DNA of 64,000 bases, taken from NCBI GenBank assembly GCA_000004985.1, contig GG738855.1; one strand, written 5' to 3'. Below are positions 39,615 through 52,757 of the stretch, piece by piece (the stretch's first letter is position 1; each line of letters starts with the position of its first letter). Under the pieces are notes generated by a model. That model was given only the letters and a program-made list of their open reading frames with translations, had not been told where the DNA came from and made no database searches. The translations under genes were made by a program, and so were the position numbers. This DNA is from Naegleria gruberi. Taxonomy: Eukaryota.

Positions 39615-40811
39615 TTAAGCAAGACGTTCAATAACAACTGCTGAAGCACCACCACCACCATTACAAATGGAAGCACAACCAATTTCTTGATTTCTATGTT
39701 GGAGAGCACTGATCAAAGTACAGAGAATTCTAGCACCTGAACAACCAATTGGGTGACCCAATGAAACAGCACCACCAAAGATGTTTACATTACTAACATC
39801 CAATCCAAGAATCTTCATATTAGCAAGGGCAACAACAGAGAAAGCTTCATTAACTTCCCACAAATCAACATCACCAATATTAACACCAGCATGTCTCAAA
39901 GCAATTGGAACAGCAGCAGAAGGAGCAGTTGGGAAATCAATTGGAGCCTTTTCAGCATCACCATAACCCAAAATTCTAGCAATTGGCTTCAAACCAGCAT
40001 TCTTGGCCTTTTGTTCACTCATCAAAACTAAAGCAGCACCACCATCAGACAGTGTGGAAGCATTGGCAGCGGTGACAGTACCATCCTTCATAAAAACTGG
40101 CTTGAGTTGTGGAACCTTATCAAAGTTAATGTTAGTATATTCTTCATCTTTTTGGAGATAGCTGACAACATCACCCTTCTTCTTTGTTGGAAGAGCAATC
40201 GAGAACATTTCATTAGCCATATATCCCTTTTCATTAGCTTCACGAGCTCTATTATATGATTCAATTGCATAGTTATCTTGATCTTCACGAGTAATACCAA
40301 ATGATTTGGCAGTATGTTCAGCACACCAACCCATATGTTCATTACTGAAGGCATCAGTCAAACCATCCTTCAAAATTGAGTCAACCAATTTACCATCACC
40401 TAATCTGTGACCAGATCTTCCGTGTGGAACATAATATGGTGCATTACTCATAGATTCAAAACCACCAGCAACAACACAATTATGGATTCCTAATTCAATT
40501 GATTGAGTACCATACATGACAGCCTTCATACCAGAAGCACACATCTTGTTGAGTGTTGTACAAACGACACTATCTGGAAGACCAGCATGAATACAAGCTT
40601 GGCGAGCTGGAGCTTGACCCAAATTAGCAGAAATAACATTGCCCATAATTACTTCTTGTACTTCGGAGAGTGTAACACCTGATTTTTGAAGGGCAGAACG
40701 AATGGCCAATGAACCTAATTTTGGTGCATCAAATCCAGAGAGTTTACCAAGGAAGGAACCGATTGGTGTTCTTTGAGCGGCAACAATAACAGCACGAGTC
40801 TTTAAAGTCAT
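39615..40811 (-). CDS. Acetyl-CoA C-acetyltransferase (acetoacetyl-CoA thiolase)
   Basis: True ATG at 40811 (MTLKTRAVIVAAQRTPIGSFLGKL); the track start at 40925 is a TTG in the leader. Signatures NKMCASGMKAV (active-site Cys), GHPIGCSGARIL and CNGGGGASAVVIE. Intronless, about 398 aa. Confidence 0.9.
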   Translation of the reverse strand: MTLKTRAVIVAAQRTPIGSFLGKLSGFDAPKLGSLAIRSALQKSGVTLSEVQEVIMGNVISANLGQAPARQACIHAGLPDSVVCTTLNKMCASGMKAVMYGTQSIELGIHNCVVAGGFESMSNAPYYVPHGRSGHRLGDGKLVDSILKDGLTDAFSNEHMGWCAEHTAKSFGITREDQDNYAIESYNRAREANEKGYMANEMFSIALPTKKKGDVVSYLQKDEEYTNINFDKVPQLKPVFMKDGTVTAANASTLSDGGAALVLMSEQKAKNAGLKPIARILGYGDAEKAPIDFPTAPSAAVPIALRHAGVNIGDVDLWEVNEAFSVVALANMKILGLDVSNVNIFGGAVSLGHPIGCSGARILCTLISALQHRNQEIGCASICNGGGGASAVVIERLA

Positions 40812-40948
40812 TTTTTTATAATAATTTAATAAATAAATTTTCGCGTTTTTCCATTCAACCAAGAGTATGGACCATTTTAGTTTTGGAAGGAAAAGCGGAT
40901 CTCCATTTTGTAAAGTTAAGCTCAATTGAAATTAATTAATTGAATAAG

Positions 40949-41911
40949 CTAATTGAAAATCTTCCAAATGCCTCTGATTGACTTTTGGTGAACAGCATAT
41001 GGAACCTCAAGAAGACCTCTCAACATTTTCATAATATCTAACCCCATTGTTAAACCGATAATACCAGCAATAGAACCCAATAAACCTGGAATATCTGTCG
41101 ATAGGACTTCATCAATAACTTGAACATCAAGCGTTCCATAAGAGACAGAGATAATAATATCTGCAGAACTGGCATTCGATATTTTGATTTGTGACAAGGT
41201 TGGCTCCCACAGTGTAGTTGAATTCCCATCAAGAAAGTTCTTTGTCACCTTATTCAGAGTATACATATTATCCTTGTATGGAGAAGCAAATTGTGTCTCT
41301 GCAAAAATGTCAGCTTCAGCAGCTATTTCATGGAATGAAATCTGAGCACCATATTTCCCTGCAGTAGGAGCTTTCATTTTAAAGTTCAATGATATTGATC
41401 CTCCAAATCCTGCAGTTGATGTTGTCTTAATACTCTTAATTTCATTATTAAGAAAATAACAATTAAATTTCAGTCCAGAAGTTACAATCTCCTTCTTTTG
41501 ATTTGTAATGGTTGTTGAAGACTTTACTCCAGAGCTGGAGTAAGAATAAGCTCCAGTAAAAGTAATATCACAATAATCACAAGCTTCGGAAGGAGGCTTG
41601 GCATTATAATTACAAATGGTCATCCCAGGAAATTCCATCTTATCCTGAGTGACATACGAGATTGTTGTTGTAGGCTGGTTTTTACTCTTCTCATAGGTAT
41701 CCGATACGTCATAAATATACCAGCCACTAAATCCTAGAAAAATCAACCAACCAATAATTGCGAAAATATCCCTTACTGCAAATTTCCATTTCTTTTTAGG
41801 AGCAGCTGGAGCAGAAATTTGTATACCTATTTTCTCTCCAACCTTTTCAACTCCTTCTACAAGAGTATGCACGGGAACAGTTGAATTCATTTTTTTAAGC
41901 ATGTAGTTCAT
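40949..41911 (-). CDS. Compact two-TM membrane protein with ENaC/degenerin-like motifs (paralogue 1)
   Basis: ATG at 41911. TM1 (IFAIIGWLIFLGFSGWYIY) is followed by ..DKMEFPGMTICNYN.. (compare ENaC/ASIC post-TM1 FPAVTxCN). A Cys-containing ectodomain follows. Pre-TM2 ..GSIAGIIGLTMGLDIMKM.. resembles ENaC/ASIC GG..GLF.G.S.L. About 320 aa. Confidence 0.45.
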   Translation of the reverse strand: MNYMLKKMNSTVPVHTLVEGVEKVGEKIGIQISAPAAPKKKWKFAVRDIFAIIGWLIFLGFSGWYIYDVSDTYEKSKNQPTTTISYVTQDKMEFPGMTICNYNAKPPSEACDYCDITFTGAYSYSSSGVKSSTTITNQKKEIVTSGLKFNCYFLNNEIKSIKTTSTAGFGGSISLNFKMKAPTAGKYGAQISFHEIAAEADIFAETQFASPYKDNMYTLNKVTKNFLDGNSTTLWEPTLSQIKISNASSADIIISVSYGTLDVQVIDEVLSTDIPGLLGSIAGIIGLTMGLDIMKMLRGLLEVPYAVHQKSIRGIWKIFN

Positions 41912-42035: not shown

Positions 42036-42977
42036 TTAATTCAAAGCTTCATAGACCAGTCTGTGTTGTTTAGTTTTGACTGCTTCGAATATAATAAACC
42101 CAACTCTTATCATTTTTAGGAGATCCAGGCCGAACAATACACCCAACATACCAGCAATTTCTCCCATCAATTCAGTCCAAGTTTTAGACTCGAATTCATT
42201 TCTAGTTGTAATGTCCAATTTACCATAACCAACAGAAACCACAACTGTTCCATCAGAATAGTTAATTAATTTTACAGAAGACTTCACTGCCTTATAGAGT
42301 GTGTTATCAGTTCTATACTCGACTGATGTCTTTAATCTCTTAATGTTCTCTAAAGAGAGAGTGAAAAAGTTATCATCTCCAACTGATGCAAAATTGAACT
42401 TGGCATGGTCATTATCGACAGAAACACCTTCATCATAAGTATTGAAAAATACATAAAGACCAGCTCTTTTAAGACTATTAATCTTTGAGAAATCATCAAG
42501 TGTAAACTCAAAAGCAATTGATCCACCATATCCACTTTGATTTGATTTGTATTTTGATTTTCCATCTCCATTAAATGTAAAACACTGATACGTGTAGACA
42601 GTACCTGCCTGTGTTACTGTAATTTTTGATGATGAAAGAGTTTCAGTGCAACTCCCTCCAGGAATTGTGCATCCAGTAAAACTTAGTGCTGTATCTGGTA
42701 TTGATGAACAAAATGTTGTCTTGGGAAAGTTCAATGATGAATAAGAAGTGACATCCACTGATACTGGAGGATGGGTCTGAAGATAAGAGTAGCCAGATAT
42801 AACACTCCACATATAAACTCCCAACATTGCAATACTTCCTAGCCATCCGAAAATTACAAGAAATTCTCCATAAGTGTATCCATATTTCTTCTCAAGCTCA
42901 TCTCTTGCTCCTTCTCCACTTCCATCATCGGAATCTTCTTCTGCTCCTAAAACATCAACAGGTTGATCGGTGGTCAT
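42036..42977 (-). CDS. Compact two-TM membrane protein with ENaC/degenerin-like motifs (paralogue 2)
   Basis: ATG at 42977. Acidic N-terminus. TM1 (FLVIFGWLGSIAMLGVYMW) ..SLNFPKTTFCS.. Cys-rich ectodomain ..ELMGEIAGMLGVLFGLDLLKM.. TM2. Same architecture as, and clear paralogy with, 40949..41911. Confidence 0.45.
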   Translation of the reverse strand: MTTDQPVDVLGAEEDSDDGSGEGARDELEKKYGYTYGEFLVIFGWLGSIAMLGVYMWSVISGYSYLQTHPPVSVDVTSYSSLNFPKTTFCSSIPDTALSFTGCTIPGGSCTETLSSSKITVTQAGTVYTYQCFTFNGDGKSKYKSNQSGYGGSIAFEFTLDDFSKINSLKRAGLYVFFNTYDEGVSVDNDHAKFNFASVGDDNFFTLSLENIKRLKTSVEYRTDNTLYKAVKSSVKLINYSDGTVVVSVGYGKLDITTRNEFESKTWTELMGEIAGMLGVLFGLDLLKMIRVGFIIFEAVKTKQHRLVYEALN

Positions 42978-45465: not shown

Positions 45466-46650
45466 ATGTCCTTTCTCTCATCACAATATCAACCAACATC
45501 TGATAATAATTCATCGGCATCAAGCCGATCATCAATTTCCATGTTTCAGCCAACATTCTTTGAAATAATGACACAGGAAAGAATGATTTCTGGATTAAAA
45601 TCAGCGCTCCGATACATCTTGTCAATGGCTGCACAACGCAATTTTAGATATTTGAACATTTTGAAATATTATGATGAATTATTTGGAATACTTCAACTTG
45701 TGATCGAGAGACATTTTCTCTCAAATTTTGACTCTTCTTTTGCCGAGCATTTATTTGGATTGAAACGAGTGGATGCAAATCAATTTACACCTGATAATCA
45801 ATCAAAACCTTCATTTCTTACCAGCAAACAGAGAGCACAAAGTCTTGCATATCTTGTCTTTGTTCCTTATATAAAGGATAAATTGGAAAATTTATATGTT
45901 GATTTGAGAAGAGAGCATGCCTTGTCAGATATTAGAAATTCTACAGAATTGGATAATTCAATTATTCCTTCGGAAATGCTGCAAGAGGAGTCAAGTAATA
46001 TGGGATATCATAGATTTTCAAAAATTGTTAGGACATACTTTATGAAATTATGGCCATATATTAGTACTGCCTATGAGGGCTCTCATTTCTTTTTCATGTT
46101 CCTCTATCTGTTAAAGAGAGATTTCAAATATCATAATCCTTTCATGTATTTGATTGGACTATGTCTTAAGAGATTATCACCATCAGAACATGTACAACAT
46201 TTGAGTGCTATGAATATCAAGAGAAATAATCTCATTGAATCTTTCAAAAAATTGGGGGGAAATTTATTTGGATCTCTTTTTGGTTACATTATCAAATTTT
46301 TATACTCAATTTCTGATTACTCAACTCATTTACTCTTAGCAATAGCCTTCCTTTTCAAATTCTTTGAATGGTATTTCAATAATGAATCATCACTTCTCAC
46401 AAAGGGAAATATCATCATTCCACCTCCACCTTCACAACCAGAGAGAACTCCAGGAGGTCTAGAAATACCAACAAACCCAAGATTATGTCCATTGTGTAAG
46501 AAGGAAAGAAGAAATGCCACTTTATTGACAGTTTCTGGCTTTGTATTCTGTTACAAGTGTATTCAAAATCATTTGATAAGTCATTCAACCTGTCCAATCA
46601 CACTCTCTCCCTGTAACAAATCACATCTTGTAAAGATATTTGAAAATTAG
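45466..46650 (+). CDS. PEX12: Peroxisome assembly protein 12 (Pex12 family, degenerate C-terminal RING)
   Basis: The C-terminus NPRLCPLCKKERRNATLLTVSGFVFCYKCIQNHLISHSTCPITLSPC matches the Pex12 zinc-binding motif (CPLC..R.N.T.L..SG.VFCY.C......H..CPIT), and the N-terminal region has the Pex2/10/12 architecture. Intronless; the start coordinate is taken from the track. Confidence 0.8.
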   Translation: MSFLSSQYQPTSDNNSSASSRSSISMFQPTFFEIMTQERMISGLKSALRYILSMAAQRNFRYLNILKYYDELFGILQLVIERHFLSNFDSSFAEHLFGLKRVDANQFTPDNQSKPSFLTSKQRAQSLAYLVFVPYIKDKLENLYVDLRREHALSDIRNSTELDNSIIPSEMLQEESSNMGYHRFSKIVRTYFMKLWPYISTAYEGSHFFFMFLYLLKRDFKYHNPFMYLIGLCLKRLSPSEHVQHLSAMNIKRNNLIESFKKLGGNLFGSLFGYIIKFLYSISDYSTHLLLAIAFLFKFFEWYFNNESSLLTKGNIIIPPPPSQPERTPGGLEIPTNPRLCPLCKKERRNATLLTVSGFVFCYKCIQNHLISHSTCPITLSPCNKSHLVKIFEN

Positions 46651-48513: not shown

Positions 48514-49152
48514 CTATTGACTGGTTGAAGTACCATTCTTATTTTCAATATCTTTTTTAATGTAAGAGAAATTAGCTTCGAGCTCTCTTTCCAATTCTTG
48601 TTCCTTCTCTTCACTCTTTTTAATCTTGTCATTGAACTTTTTAACCTTGGCTTCCAAATTCTTCCTCTTTACAGCCCAAATCAATAAACAAACAGAAATA
48701 AACAGAACACCAAATGCACGAATACCTCTATAAATAACCTTCTTTAACATGACTTCTGCATCCTTACGGGATTCCAATTCTTTTTGTAACATTTCTCTCT
48801 TTTGTTTCAGACTTTCGGCAGAGTCCATGATGAGAGAAGCTGTCGATTGCAAATTAAAAACATTTTCTGATGTTGTTGATTGTTCTGATGAGGTATTGGT
48901 TTGTTGTTCGTTGGTTGTTGTGGTAGGTTCTTGGGCTGGTGAATTTTCTACCACTGGTTCCGATAATGTTGAGGTTTTTTCTTCTTTACTTTCTGATTGT
49001 TCTGATGAGGTATTTGTTGTTGTTGTATTATTGGATAATAATCTATTAGAAAATTGAGTGGAAAAACATCTTGATGAGAAGGTAGTGGCCAATCTTTGGT
49101 TATATCCTGTTGGCAATCGGAGTAATTGTTTGGTAAATTGTCGTGATAACAT
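48514..49152 (-). CDS. Hypothetical mitochondrial-type single-pass membrane coiled-coil protein
   Basis: N-terminus MLSRQFTKQLLRLPTGYNQRLATTFSSRCFSTQF is presequence-like. A T/S/Q-rich linker is followed by one TM (GIRAFGVLFISVCLLIWAV) and a charged coiled-coil tail. Confidence 0.4.
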   Translation of the reverse strand: MLSRQFTKQLLRLPTGYNQRLATTFSSRCFSTQFSNRLLSNNTTTTNTSSEQSESKEEKTSTLSEPVVENSPAQEPTTTTNEQQTNTSSEQSTTSENVFNLQSTASLIMDSAESLKQKREMLQKELESRKDAEVMLKKVIYRGIRAFGVLFISVCLLIWAVKRKNLEAKVKKFNDKIKKSEEKEQELERELEANFSYIKKDIENKNGTSTSQ

Positions 49153-49248: not shown

Positions 49249-50123
49249 TTAATGAGAGAGTAAATTCAAACGATCTTTCCATGCTGTATCTGCCGAGTGG
49301 AAGGTAATAATTCTCTTTTCGTCTTGCTCATCTGCCACTTCAGAGTTCATGTCTGTATCGACTGGTTCGAAAATAATACAGAGAATGTGACATTTGGTTG
49401 TGTCTGACATGGCATCTTTGATGATAGTGTGATGTGGTTGCTTCATCACATCTTCTTCCAATAATCTATTTCCCCATTCAATGAGCGAAATTCCACTTGA
49501 AAAAACAGATGGTAAATCCAATCTATCAAATCGTTCCAATCTATAGAGGTCAATATGATGAATAGGACTATTAAATTATTATATTTGTTAAATTAAAATT
49601 CATTGTAATAATACGAAACTTACACTTTCTTGCTCGTCATTTTGGATTCGTAAATATTATCTAGCAAAAATGTTGGTGATGGAACATTGAGATTCATATC
49701 CTTTTCCAATACTCTGATAACGTGTCTTGCAAAAACAGATTTTCCACTTCCCATATCACCAATTAATAAGACAACATCTGTAGATTCCAACATGGATGAA
49801 AATCTTTCGGCCAAATTTCTAGTTTCTTCAACTGAATTGACAACAAAAGTTGCTTCAAAATAGGTGGGAGTGACCTGGGATGGTATTTCTCTAGCCGAAT
49901 ATTTATAATCATCCATTTTCTGTTGCTTTTTCAACTCTGGCCCATTTAAACAAGAGTGAGTACTGAATGTTCTTTCTCCGATGAATTTTGTAGATTGATT
50001 CCAATTAGTGGTAGTCCAGTTGGCCGCACTTCCAAGTATAAACTTTCCATTGTTTTTGGTGATGGATTGAATTTGATGGATGAGATTGATACTTCTTCTT
50101 CTGCTGCTGTTGCTCGATAACAT
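49249..50123 (-). CDS. TsaE/YjeE-like P-loop ATPase (bacterial t6A-biosynthesis accessory protein family) with N-terminal extension, 2 exons (50123-49624, 49567-49249)
   Basis: ATG at 50123 (MLSSNSSRRRSINLIHQ..). Walker A VVLLIGDMGSGKSVFARHVIRVL, then ..NVPSPTFLLDNIYE... A 56-nt intron (GTAAGTTTCG...TTTAATAG) joins to PIHHIDLYRLERFDRLDLPSVFSSGISLIEWGN... This matches the TsaE motif order (G.GKT / PTF.L...Y / .HFDLYRL...E...L / ..IEW). Junction phase verified. Confidence 0.6.
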
Positions 50124-52151: not shown

Positions 52152-52757
52152 TTATTGAGAGTAATAATCCTTTCTTGGTTTCCAAGTTTTCATTAGTTCA
52201 TTCTTTTGTTTCAAATTCTTAATAGCCTCATTTGGGTCAATAATTGCTAAATATCCAAAATTGAGTGGATGAGTTTGACACAAAGATGGTGTAGCTGTTT
52301 CAGATAATCTCTGATTGACCTCTACTAATTTTCCTTTCACATATGATTGTATTTCCAATGAGCAAATTGTTTCTGGAGACTCATTTGAGGCATATTCAAT
52401 TTTACAAATTATTGTGTTTGGTTGAATTGAGTGACATGGTAATTTTTGTTTGTTCTTTTTTCCATTGTTGTTATTTTGTTGTTTGACCTCCTTTGGTTTT
52501 TCATCATCCTCCATGGCATTATCGGATGGTGTTGTTGTAGTTGGTGGTTGAATTGGAAAATGCACTTTTACTACTCGGAAAGTATTTTGGCAAAGAAAGT
52601 GCTTCGGAGATAAACAAATCACAAATAAACCATTCTTATGTTCTTGAATACATAAATCATAATTTAAAATTGGGTCATTACTGGTTGTTGCAGGTTGAAT
52701 ATAGTAATCATCAATATTCTCGTTGATTAAAAGTTGGGTACGTTCACATTTACTCAT
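52152..52757 (-). CDS. Hypothetical protein (201 aa)
   Basis: ATG at 52757 (MSKCERTQLLINENIDDYYIQP..). Segments ..GLFVICLSPKHFLCQNTFRVVKVHFP.. and ..CSLEIQSYVKGKLVEVNQRLSE..PLNFGYLAIIDP.. look like a folded domain. Family not recognised. Confidence 0.4.
   Translation of the reverse strand: MSKCERTQLLINENIDDYYIQPATTSNDPILNYDLCIQEHKNGLFVICLSPKHFLCQNTFRVVKVHFPIQPPTTTTPSDNAMEDDEKPKEVKQQNNNNGKKNKQKLPCHSIQPNTIICKIEYASNESPETICSLEIQSYVKGKLVEVNQRLSETATPSLCQTHPLNFGYLAIIDPNEAIKNLKQKNELMKTWKPRKDYYSQ

Follow-up and report, generated by a model that had tools for sequence, protein, structure and literature searches.

Do eukaryotes encode TsaE (YjeE), the accessory P-loop ATPase of bacterial synthesis of N6-threonylcarbamoyladenosine (t6A), a modified nucleoside in tRNA? 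According to two reviews, Eukarya lack homologues of TsaE and TsaB; both proteins are treated there as bacteria-specific drug targets, and Qri7/OSGEPL1 is described as acting alone in mitochondria, with Sua5 and Qri7 forming a minimal, ancestral-like system (PMC4615747, PMC9654439). An initial annotation of a 64,000-nucleotide window of contig GG738855.1 from Naegleria gruberi (assembly GCA_000004985.1) had set out this same view of mitochondrial t6A synthesis and of a bacteria-only TsaE, with which both reviews agree, and had placed against it a TsaE-like gene carrying a spliceosomal intron. Analysis of the sequence confirms that the locus is a real spliced nuclear gene of N. gruberi, at the coordinates first described. 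Taken as a whole, our account is that the gene encodes a functional TsaE of alphaproteobacterial/mitochondrial descent, imported into mitochondria by means of a presequence and taking part in t6A synthesis together with a Qri7-like transferase; we regard this combination as fairly probable.

The gene occupies 50123..49249 on the minus strand, with its ATG at 50123, and consists of two exons separated by one intron. Exon 1 (49624..50123, minus strand, 500 nt), delimited as the open reading frame from the ATG and by splice reconstruction, contains codons 1-166 and two nucleotides of codon 167, and encodes the N-terminal extension, the Walker A motif and the SPTF motif. The intron (49568..49623, minus strand) is exactly 56 nt long, reads GTAAGT...TTTAATAG, lies in phase 2 and is placed two codons ahead of IHHIDLYRL. 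Exon 2 (49249..49567, minus strand) supplies the rest of codon 167 through to codon 272 and the stop TAA at 49249-49251, and encodes HHIDLYRL, IEW and the C-terminal strands and helix; it is required for a complete TsaE fold. Removal of the intron joins both open stretches in frame, giving a coding sequence of 819 nt and a protein of 272 residues, with the splice junction inside the motif ..SKK(V)PIHHIDLYRL. The open reading frame that begins at 50123 ends at a TAA overlapping the GTAAGT, and retention of the intron would bring an immediate stop (GTG TAA), leaving a 167-residue protein that lacks HxDxYR and EW and has lost half of the domain.

Full-length orthologues are present in Naegleria lovaniensis (278 residues), Naegleria fowleri (277 residues) and Willaertia magna (227 residues), and these proteins read ..IHHIDLYRLDRFDRLDL.. 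without interruption. Protein-to-genome fits place a single phase-2 intron in each of these loci (147 nt in N. lovaniensis, 194 nt in N. fowleri, 45 nt in Willaertia), at the identical position in both Naegleria species and one codon away in Willaertia. The 56-nt spliceosomal intron initially proposed is thus GT-AG, restores the frame, and is real on the evidence of same-phase introns at the same place in three other heteroloboseans, whose proteins read through the junction.

The assignment of the encoded protein to the TsaE family, also made at the outset, is supported by profile searches, by sequence motifs and by the predicted fold. The Pfam TsaE profile PF02367, whose use had been recommended as a check, matches residues 96-214, that is, both sides of the splice junction, with E=5.6e-26 and 91.4 bits, far over its gathering score of 26.6. 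The NCBIfam equivalog TIGR00150 is passed marginally (62.5 against a cut-off of 60.1), and the best sequence matches in the PDB are all TsaE, from T. maritima, B. subtilis and H. influenzae. All of the motifs named initially (Walker A GDMGSGKS, PTF..DN.YE, PIHHIDLYRL and LIEW) were found again, and the signature set is complete: GDMGSGKS (122-129), SPTFLLDNIYE, V↓PIHHIDLYRL (the arrow marks the splice junction) and LIEW. On the minus strand, the Walker A motif or P-loop G122-D-M-G-S-G-K128-S129 lies at 49737..49760 (invariant columns G122, G125, G127 and K128), S149-P-T151-F at 49668..49679 (invariant S149 and P150), H170-H-I-D173-L-Y175-R176-L at 49537..49560 (invariant H, D, Y and R columns) and I196-E197-W198 at 49474..49482 (invariant E and W columns). 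Two alignments, one with 33 and one with 77 sequences, have K128, SPT151, D173, Y175, E197 and W198 all in invariant columns. In the T. maritima TsaBDE structure the Thr of SPT, a Tyr and a Trp surround the ATP gamma-phosphate together with two TsaD lysines; the Thr hydrogen-bonds TsaD Lys166, which holds the gamma-phosphate, the Trp of switch I hydrogen-bonds the gamma-phosphate itself, and the switch II Tyr is Y82 in E. coli TsaE (PMC6009658). Naegleria Y175 aligns with this Y82, and W198 with W109 of the E. coli protein.

An AlphaFold2 model of residues 69-272 (pLDDT 90.7, pTM 0.85) gave eight significant Foldseek matches in the PDB, all of them TsaE/YdiB/HI0065; the E values run from 8.5e-12 to 1e-9, and the target-normalised TM-scores against these TsaE chains lie between 0.71 and 0.84. 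The Naegleria protein shares with bacterial TsaE, as seen in T. maritima TsaB2D2E2 (PDB 6N9A/6S84), the Pfam and NCBIfam family, Walker A, SPT, HxDxYR, EW and the fold. In contrast to it, the Naegleria protein, known here from sequence and model, is nuclear-encoded, is interrupted by an intron, carries an N-terminal extension of about 88 residues and has a shortened, less acidic alpha3 segment. Its C-terminal part has two additions, a helix at residues 211-221 and, inserted between the last two beta-strands, an acidic loop of 18 residues (residues 234-251, EPVDTDMNSEVADEQDEK; 49315..49368, minus strand). This loop falls in alignment gaps relative to bacterial TsaE and is modelled with lower pLDDT. 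In the structure model it is followed by the last strand, R252-IITFHS, and the C-terminal helix TAWKDRLNLLS (49255..49314, minus strand).

Where would such a protein act? The initial annotation had noted an N-terminal extension of roughly 60 residues. The extension exists, and in the model it is longer, with about 88 residues ahead of a first strand starting at F89; the earlier figure comes near the length of the putative presequence, which is about 53 residues. This presequence-like N-terminus (residues 1-53, 49965..50123, minus strand; MLSSNSSRRRSINLIHQ...ERTF↓S) is basic and hydroxylated and ends in an R-3 type R-x-F↓S site. The first 40 residues have a net charge of +5 and a hydrophobic moment of 0.64, and acidic residues begin at position 50, which makes the mitochondrial presequence suggested earlier plausible. 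By heuristic criteria, all four heterolobosean N-termini resemble one another in this respect, with a net charge of +5 to +7 in the first 40 residues, a first acidic residue at 20-50 and an amphipathic stretch. The R-3 rule of the mitochondrial processing peptidase is established, and R51-T-F↓S54 fits it; the other Naegleria species have R-N-Y where N. gruberi has R51-T52-F53↓S54, giving an aligned R-x-(F/Y) in three Naegleria. We infer that a presequence of about 53 residues would be cleaved at R51-T-F↓S54.

The organelle proteome of N. gruberi (PMC8134430), in which 4,198 proteins were detected and 946 were assigned to the mitochondrial cluster, contains among these 946 the public counterpart of this protein, XP_002680077.1. 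In Supplementary Data 2 of that study it stands in the mitochondrial sheet with four unique peptides and 19.9% coverage, and its intensity climbs toward the densest, most mitochondria-rich fraction. The targeting predictions tabulated there, which bear on a check proposed initially, are divided: the TargetP mitochondria score is 84, and PSORT II favours the cytoplasm and MultiLoc2 the nucleus. The latter two predictions speak against a mitochondrial location. The entry is the chimeric gene model discussed below, which makes the peptide evidence ambiguous, as the four peptides may derive from the product of the downstream gene. TargetP uses the N-terminus only, which is correct in the chimeric model. 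We regard the proteome entry as suggestive rather than decisive for a mitochondrial TsaE, and import into mitochondria as supported but ambiguous.

The initial annotation had also called for TsaD/Qri7 homologues to be sought elsewhere in the genome, and one is present in N. gruberi. The Qri7/TsaD-like protein XP_002678425.1 is listed in the same mitochondrial sheet, has a plant mitochondrial enzyme as its best match, and matches TsaD and Qri7 structures with E values of 1e-41 to 1e-34. Its printed sequence starts MERPKILHEQ.., and in alignments to TsaD of E. coli and Salmonella the first 23 residues of the bacterial proteins have no counterpart; the deposited model probably lacks the true N-terminus, any presequence included. 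In bacteria, ATP-bound TsaE binds the TsaB-TsaD interface and blocks the tRNA site, TsaD lysines switch on the TsaE ATPase, and hydrolysis permits repeated turnover of TsaD (PMC6009658, PMC10275265). Since all TsaE residues involved in this cycle are kept, and since the organelle list that names TsaE also names a TsaD-family enzyme, it is simplest to suppose that the same cycle may operate in Naegleria mitochondria. The TsaE-contacting lysines of TsaD, Lys166 and Lys213, lie in motifs that are generally conserved across the Kae1/TsaD/Qri7 family.

We propose a series of steps on this basis. The TsaE precursor would carry a cleavable N-terminal presequence for import into mitochondria, where the ATP-bound form of TsaE would dock at the dimer interface of the Qri7-like protein XP_002678425.1. 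The gamma-phosphate would be held jointly by the TsaE P-loop, the SPT Thr, the EW Trp and the TsaD lysines, and hydrolysis would reset the transferase for further transfers of threonylcarbamoyl from threonylcarbamoyl-AMP (TC-AMP) to A37 of ANN-decoding mitochondrial tRNAs. By analogy with the bacterial system, it is most likely that TsaE is mitochondrial and acts on a Qri7-type t6A transferase. A functional parallel is Bud32 of KEOPS, which serves cytosolic and archaeal t6A synthesis; it too is an ATPase, and it binds the helical insertion in the C-terminal domain of the Kae1/TsaD-family enzyme (PMC6009658). Bud32 is unrelated to TsaE in fold and sequence, and is an analogue and not a relative.

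Several observations on the partner weigh against this proposal. A text search of part of the PMC8134430 mitochondrial table for TsaB, YeaZ, glycoprotease, M22 or a GPGSFTG-type motif found none of them. T. maritima TsaE contacts TsaB and TsaD asymmetrically and reportedly binds homodimers of neither TsaD nor TsaB (PMC6009658), and therefore a Qri7 homodimer is not an obvious partner. The alpha3 segment, which in T. maritima TsaE touches TsaB and the TsaBD helical bundle, has a five-residue deletion and much less negative charge in heteroloboseans (49522-49536, residues 178-182; LERFDRLDLPSVFSS). For the second partner the possibilities are that a TsaB exists, or that TsaE has adapted to a Qri7 homodimer.

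The same features would suit a TsaE-derived P-loop ATPase that has left t6A synthesis and has been kept, without TsaB, for some other ATP-dependent task in mitochondria or elsewhere. Such a protein would account for the lack of a TsaB match in the searched part of the mitochondrial table, for the reported failure of TsaE to bind homodimers and for the shortened, less acidic segment that should contact TsaB; yeast and human mitochondria manage on Qri7/OSGEPL1 alone, and the TIGR00150 score lies barely over its cut-off. Nevertheless, we consider a change of task unlikely, as the residues that in bacterial complexes contact ATP or the lysines of TsaD are invariant across about 75 eukaryote-type and alpha-like sequences, the entire fold is retained, a TsaD-family enzyme occurs in the same organelle list and no alternative function of TsaE is known in any organism.

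The next question is how a eukaryote came to possess this gene. TsaE is no oddity of Naegleria; it is part of a clade of TsaE that is widespread among eukaryotes. A profile was built from six sequences, namely TsaE of the four heteroloboseans and, from metagenomes, the eukaryote-like relatives P0005 and P0006; an exhaustive HMMER scan with it returned 21,309 relatives, and most of the best 150 of these are 200-320 residues long, have N-terminal extensions and contain the C-terminal acidic insertion, which is typical of the eukaryote-type clade. Its members include green algae (Chlamydomonas eustigma, Cymbomonas), an amoebozoan (Planoprotostelium fungivorum), oomycetes (Pythium insidiosum, P. 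oligandrum) and brown, golden and pelagophyte algae together with diatoms (Pylaiella, Chrysoparadoxa, a pelagophyte, Mallomonas and several diatoms). Ten unusually long eukaryote-type relatives were searched for a second domain and contain the TsaE domain alone. The TsaE genes of Planoprotostelium, Pythium and C. eustigma are flanked by eukaryotic genes, for instance those encoding dynamitin, longin/synaptobrevin, ribosomal protein S25e and Ufd2, and those of Pylaiella and Cymbomonas adjoin genes for ribosomal protein S8e and an RRM protein. All relatives with a solved gene structure bear introns, i.e. all three of the former group as well as Cymbomonas, Chrysoparadoxa and the pelagophyte; the Pylaiella structure was not solved by the exon finder, probably owing to long introns.

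When the intron positions of ten genes were mapped onto the protein alignment, three shared positions emerged. At column 170, where the first glycine of Walker A is encoded, a phase-2 intron is found in Planoprotostelium, Pythium and Chrysoparadoxa, and Cymbomonas has a phase-1 intron in the same column. At column 215/216, two to three codons ahead of HH.DLYRL, the three Naegleria, Willaertia, Planoprotostelium, Chrysoparadoxa and Cymbomonas have a phase-2 intron; in Pythium a phase-2 intron is offset by three columns and lies in a loop prone to indels. At column 245, directly ahead of I(S/A)L(I/V)EW, a phase-1 intron is common to Planoprotostelium, Pythium and Cymbomonas. The Naegleria intron at 49568-49623 is the middle one of these three. 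The core offers about 450 possible positions, which makes independent gain an unlikely source of such exact matches between Heterolobosea, Amoebozoa, stramenopiles and green algae, although preferred insertion sites lessen this argument somewhat. The shared introns are our best evidence that a very early eukaryote already had the gene in its nucleus, introns included, and argue against a recent acquisition by Naegleria. Because relatives sharing its introns occur in many protists, the Naegleria TsaE is probably an overlooked relic of the mitochondrial ancestor.

The bacterial affinities of the protein point weakly in the same direction. In a scan of GTDB, with one genome per species and the motif [IV]HH[MFI]DL[YW]RL, which biases the outcome, at least 583 relatives were confirmed, and the best 80 of these are all from Alphaproteobacteria, mostly Mesorhizobium, with Chelativorans, Pleomorphomonas, Acetobacteraceae and others. 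In an arbitrary, motif-unbiased sample of chromosomes mislabelled as plasmids, Sinorhizobium and Shinella ranked best at 75 bits, against 48-70 for the other listed bacteria, none of which were rhizobial alphaproteobacteria. The best nr match given in PMC8134430 is Acetobacter aceti TsaE. Among the top 150 of the HMMER scan, the short proteins without an extension were called alphaproteobacterial because they are 40-62% identical to named alphaproteobacterial TsaE. In a neighbour-joining tree of 73 sequences and 126 columns, in which cyanobacteria were not sampled, the eukaryote-type sequences form one clade nested among alphaproteobacterial ones. Heterolobosea are supported at 93-95%; support is otherwise weak, at 59% for eukaryote monophyly and 20% for the split of non-alpha bacteria from the rest, and this weighs against our account of the origin. 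The phylogeny envisaged initially for dating the transfer has yielded this alphaproteobacterial nesting, at low support.

Because the neighbour-joining support is weak, we rely instead on signatures left by introns and indels. GK[ST] and SP[ST] are spaced by 19 residues in 27 of 28 eukaryote-type and 11 of 13 named alphaproteobacterial sequences, and by 17-18 residues in each of the 17 other bacteria sampled. The closest bacterial relatives appear, on weak tree support, to be alphaproteobacterial TsaE (from Mesorhizobium, Sinorhizobium, Sphingomonas and Acetobacteraceae, with alpha-like proteins from metagenome-assembled genomes), which have in common with the Naegleria protein this two-residue insertion between Walker A and SPT. 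They also resemble it in ..D..L.VPSPTF.., in IEWP.RL, in the HH ahead of DLYRL and in the C-terminal R..I...W..RL; the corresponding R..(I/V)...W..RL motif occurs in the alpha-like bacterial proteins P0131, P0093, P0252 and P0261. They differ in having neither introns nor a targeting extension, and their core identity to the N. gruberi protein is about 28-40%. Furthermore, many of them are fused to a C-terminal phosphotransferase-like region, which brings the whole protein to about 500 residues and which the eukaryotic proteins lack. In many Hyphomicrobiales (loci L004, L022, L040, L058, L078, L083 and L087) the TsaE domain forms the N-terminal part of a protein of about 500 residues, the remainder of which is similar to a 'phosphotransferase' that Sphingomonas encodes in a gene of its own after tsaE.

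An alphaproteobacterial origin is thus weakly supported, and the partner and the t6A role are proposed by analogy. We suggest that the gene is of the alphaproteobacterial/mitochondrial lineage and would have been nuclear since before the major eukaryotic supergroups split, and that animals and yeast, which according to the literature have Qri7/OSGEPL1 alone, would have lost it. Alternatively, Heterolobosea could have received TsaE by a lineage-specific transfer from bacteria and gained the intron and the targeting sequence later, the other eukaryotic TsaE having come by separate transfers or from plastids. The reported absence of TsaE from animals and yeast, its patchy distribution among eukaryotes and the 59% bootstrap of the single eukaryotic clade would agree with this, and since cyanobacteria were not in the tree, a plastid route is conceivable for the algal genes, which make up many of the relatives. 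A plastid route is irrelevant for the plastid-less Naegleria, Planoprotostelium and Pythium, the latter two of which are non-photosynthetic carriers of the gene. Moreover, the Naegleria intron has the phase and the same or an adjacent column as those of Planoprotostelium (Amoebozoa), Chrysoparadoxa (an ochrophyte) and Cymbomonas (a green alga), two more intron positions are common to Amoebozoa, stramenopiles and green algae, and the eukaryote-type sequences cluster in the tree and all have the C-terminal acidic insertion. Lineage-specific transfer therefore seems to us improbable.

Descent from the mitochondrial ancestor would add another bacterial relic to the mitochondria of Naegleria-like protists. 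Comparable cases are mitochondrial type II secretion (PMC8134430) and Ffh/FtsY (PMC8321541), bacterial, nuclear-encoded and patchy relics that animals and fungi have lost, a likeness that we draw by inference; those systems have been described and localised experimentally, whereas none of the papers found discusses TsaE in this context. With respect to the Sua5/YRDC and Qri7/OSGEPL1 system of yeast and human, the organelle and the catalytic enzyme family are the same and N. gruberi has a Qri7-like protein, whereas that system is described without an accessory ATPase (PMC9654439) and Naegleria and many protists retain TsaE. A spliced nuclear TsaE with intact catalytic residues, present in four heteroloboseans and with intron-sharing relatives in several supergroups, contradicts the statement that TsaE has no eukaryotic homologue. 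It also makes the minimal or ancestral status of Sua5 and Qri7 testable, namely by asking whether Qri7 needs or gains from TsaE. Tentatively, and with somewhat more doubt than conviction, we suggest that 'Qri7 alone' in yeast and human may be a late reduction, i.e. a derived state and not the primitive minimal state for which it is often taken. In the strongest form of this reading, if true, TsaE would act on a Qri7 homodimer without any TsaB, a pairing not known from bacteria. As an orthologue is present in the pathogen N. fowleri, a target thought to be bacteria-only therefore exists in a human-pathogenic eukaryote.

Our literature search found no paper on a eukaryotic TsaE, on this accession or on TsaE with Naegleria, and papers on Andalucia, Acanthamoeba and N. 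fowleri, with their supplements, held nothing relevant on TsaE. What is already known is an automatic TsaE name (UniProt D2V794, UniRef), attached to a wrong gene model, and a TsaE BLAST match listed without comment in a supplementary table of PMC8134430 (2021). Therefore, we regard the protein as an undescribed member of a known family; what is new is this member, in a eukaryote-type clade with features of its own.

The deposited gene model requires correction. The database match at 100% identity is XP_002680077.1 / EFC47333.1 / UniProt D2V794 / NAEGRDRAFT_57360 from N. gruberi, labelled 'predicted protein' by NCBI and named TsaE automatically in UniRef. This public protein (P0001) is 342 residues long and has only its first 167 residues in common with the 272-residue TsaE, these being identical to the product of exon 1. 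It then continues as ..LLSNNTTTTNTSS.., the body of a downstream open reading frame at 48514-49152 (minus strand). The model uses the same donor and an acceptor AG at 49044-49043, and its 581-nt 'intron' thereby covers the true exon 2, which is absent from the model and is kept at the protein level in the loci of the three other species (tblastx). The downstream frame (48514..49152) is a separate gene with an ATG of its own. Its 212-residue product starts with a presequence-like stretch (MLSRQFTKQLLRL..), contains one hydrophobic helix and a region rich in Ser and Thr, and has no match in Pfam. If the public model were right, exon 1 of TsaE would be spliced over 581 nt to 49042, and half a TsaE domain would be fused to a Ser/Thr-rich membrane protein. 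In its favour, it is the deposited XP_002680077.1 and uses the same GT donor with an AG acceptor. Against it, HxDxYR and EW would be lost together with three strands of the fold, the stretch that it skips is an open, conserved coding exon, the orthologues in three species have a short intron and the whole domain, and the downstream frame has its own start and its own presequence-like N-terminus. We hold it to be very improbable. From these features XP_002680077.1 (NAEGRDRAFT_57360) is a chimera merging two genes, and therefore the gene model of the initial annotation is the better one; in practical terms, the public N. gruberi entry joins two genes.

An artefact, whether assembly contamination, two unrelated reading frames or a decaying pseudogene, might be suspected from the bacterial nature of the closest non-eukaryotic relatives and the division of the domain over two frames, but is refuted by the 613-kb N. 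gruberi scaffold with its eukaryotic genes, a GC content like that of the rest of the window, the GT-AG intron that restores the frame and the intact motifs of the gene in four heterolobosean genomes. As the neighbours are eukaryotic and the gene is vertically conserved in Naegleria and Willaertia, bacterial contamination, already discounted initially, is excluded. The GC content of the window is uniform at about 33-38%, and the TsaE locus resembles the remainder. The N. gruberi locus and those of N. lovaniensis, N. fowleri and Willaertia have nothing in common in synteny besides the TsaE gene itself.

The neighbours in the window are ordinary eukaryotic genes. One encodes a TPR protein, another a thiolase of the acetyl-CoA acetyltransferase type (39615-40925, minus strand) and a third a Pex2/Pex12 RING peroxin (45466-46650, plus strand); the product of 52152-52757 (minus strand) has a weak, sub-threshold match resembling glycine-cleavage H protein. 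Two adjacent open reading frames of 320 and 313 residues (40949-41911 and 42036-42977, minus strand) are alike in architecture: both have a hydrophobic helix at each terminus, Cys in the part between, and ..GLD(I/L).KM(L/I)R.. after the C-terminal helix. They look like tandem membrane-protein paralogues.

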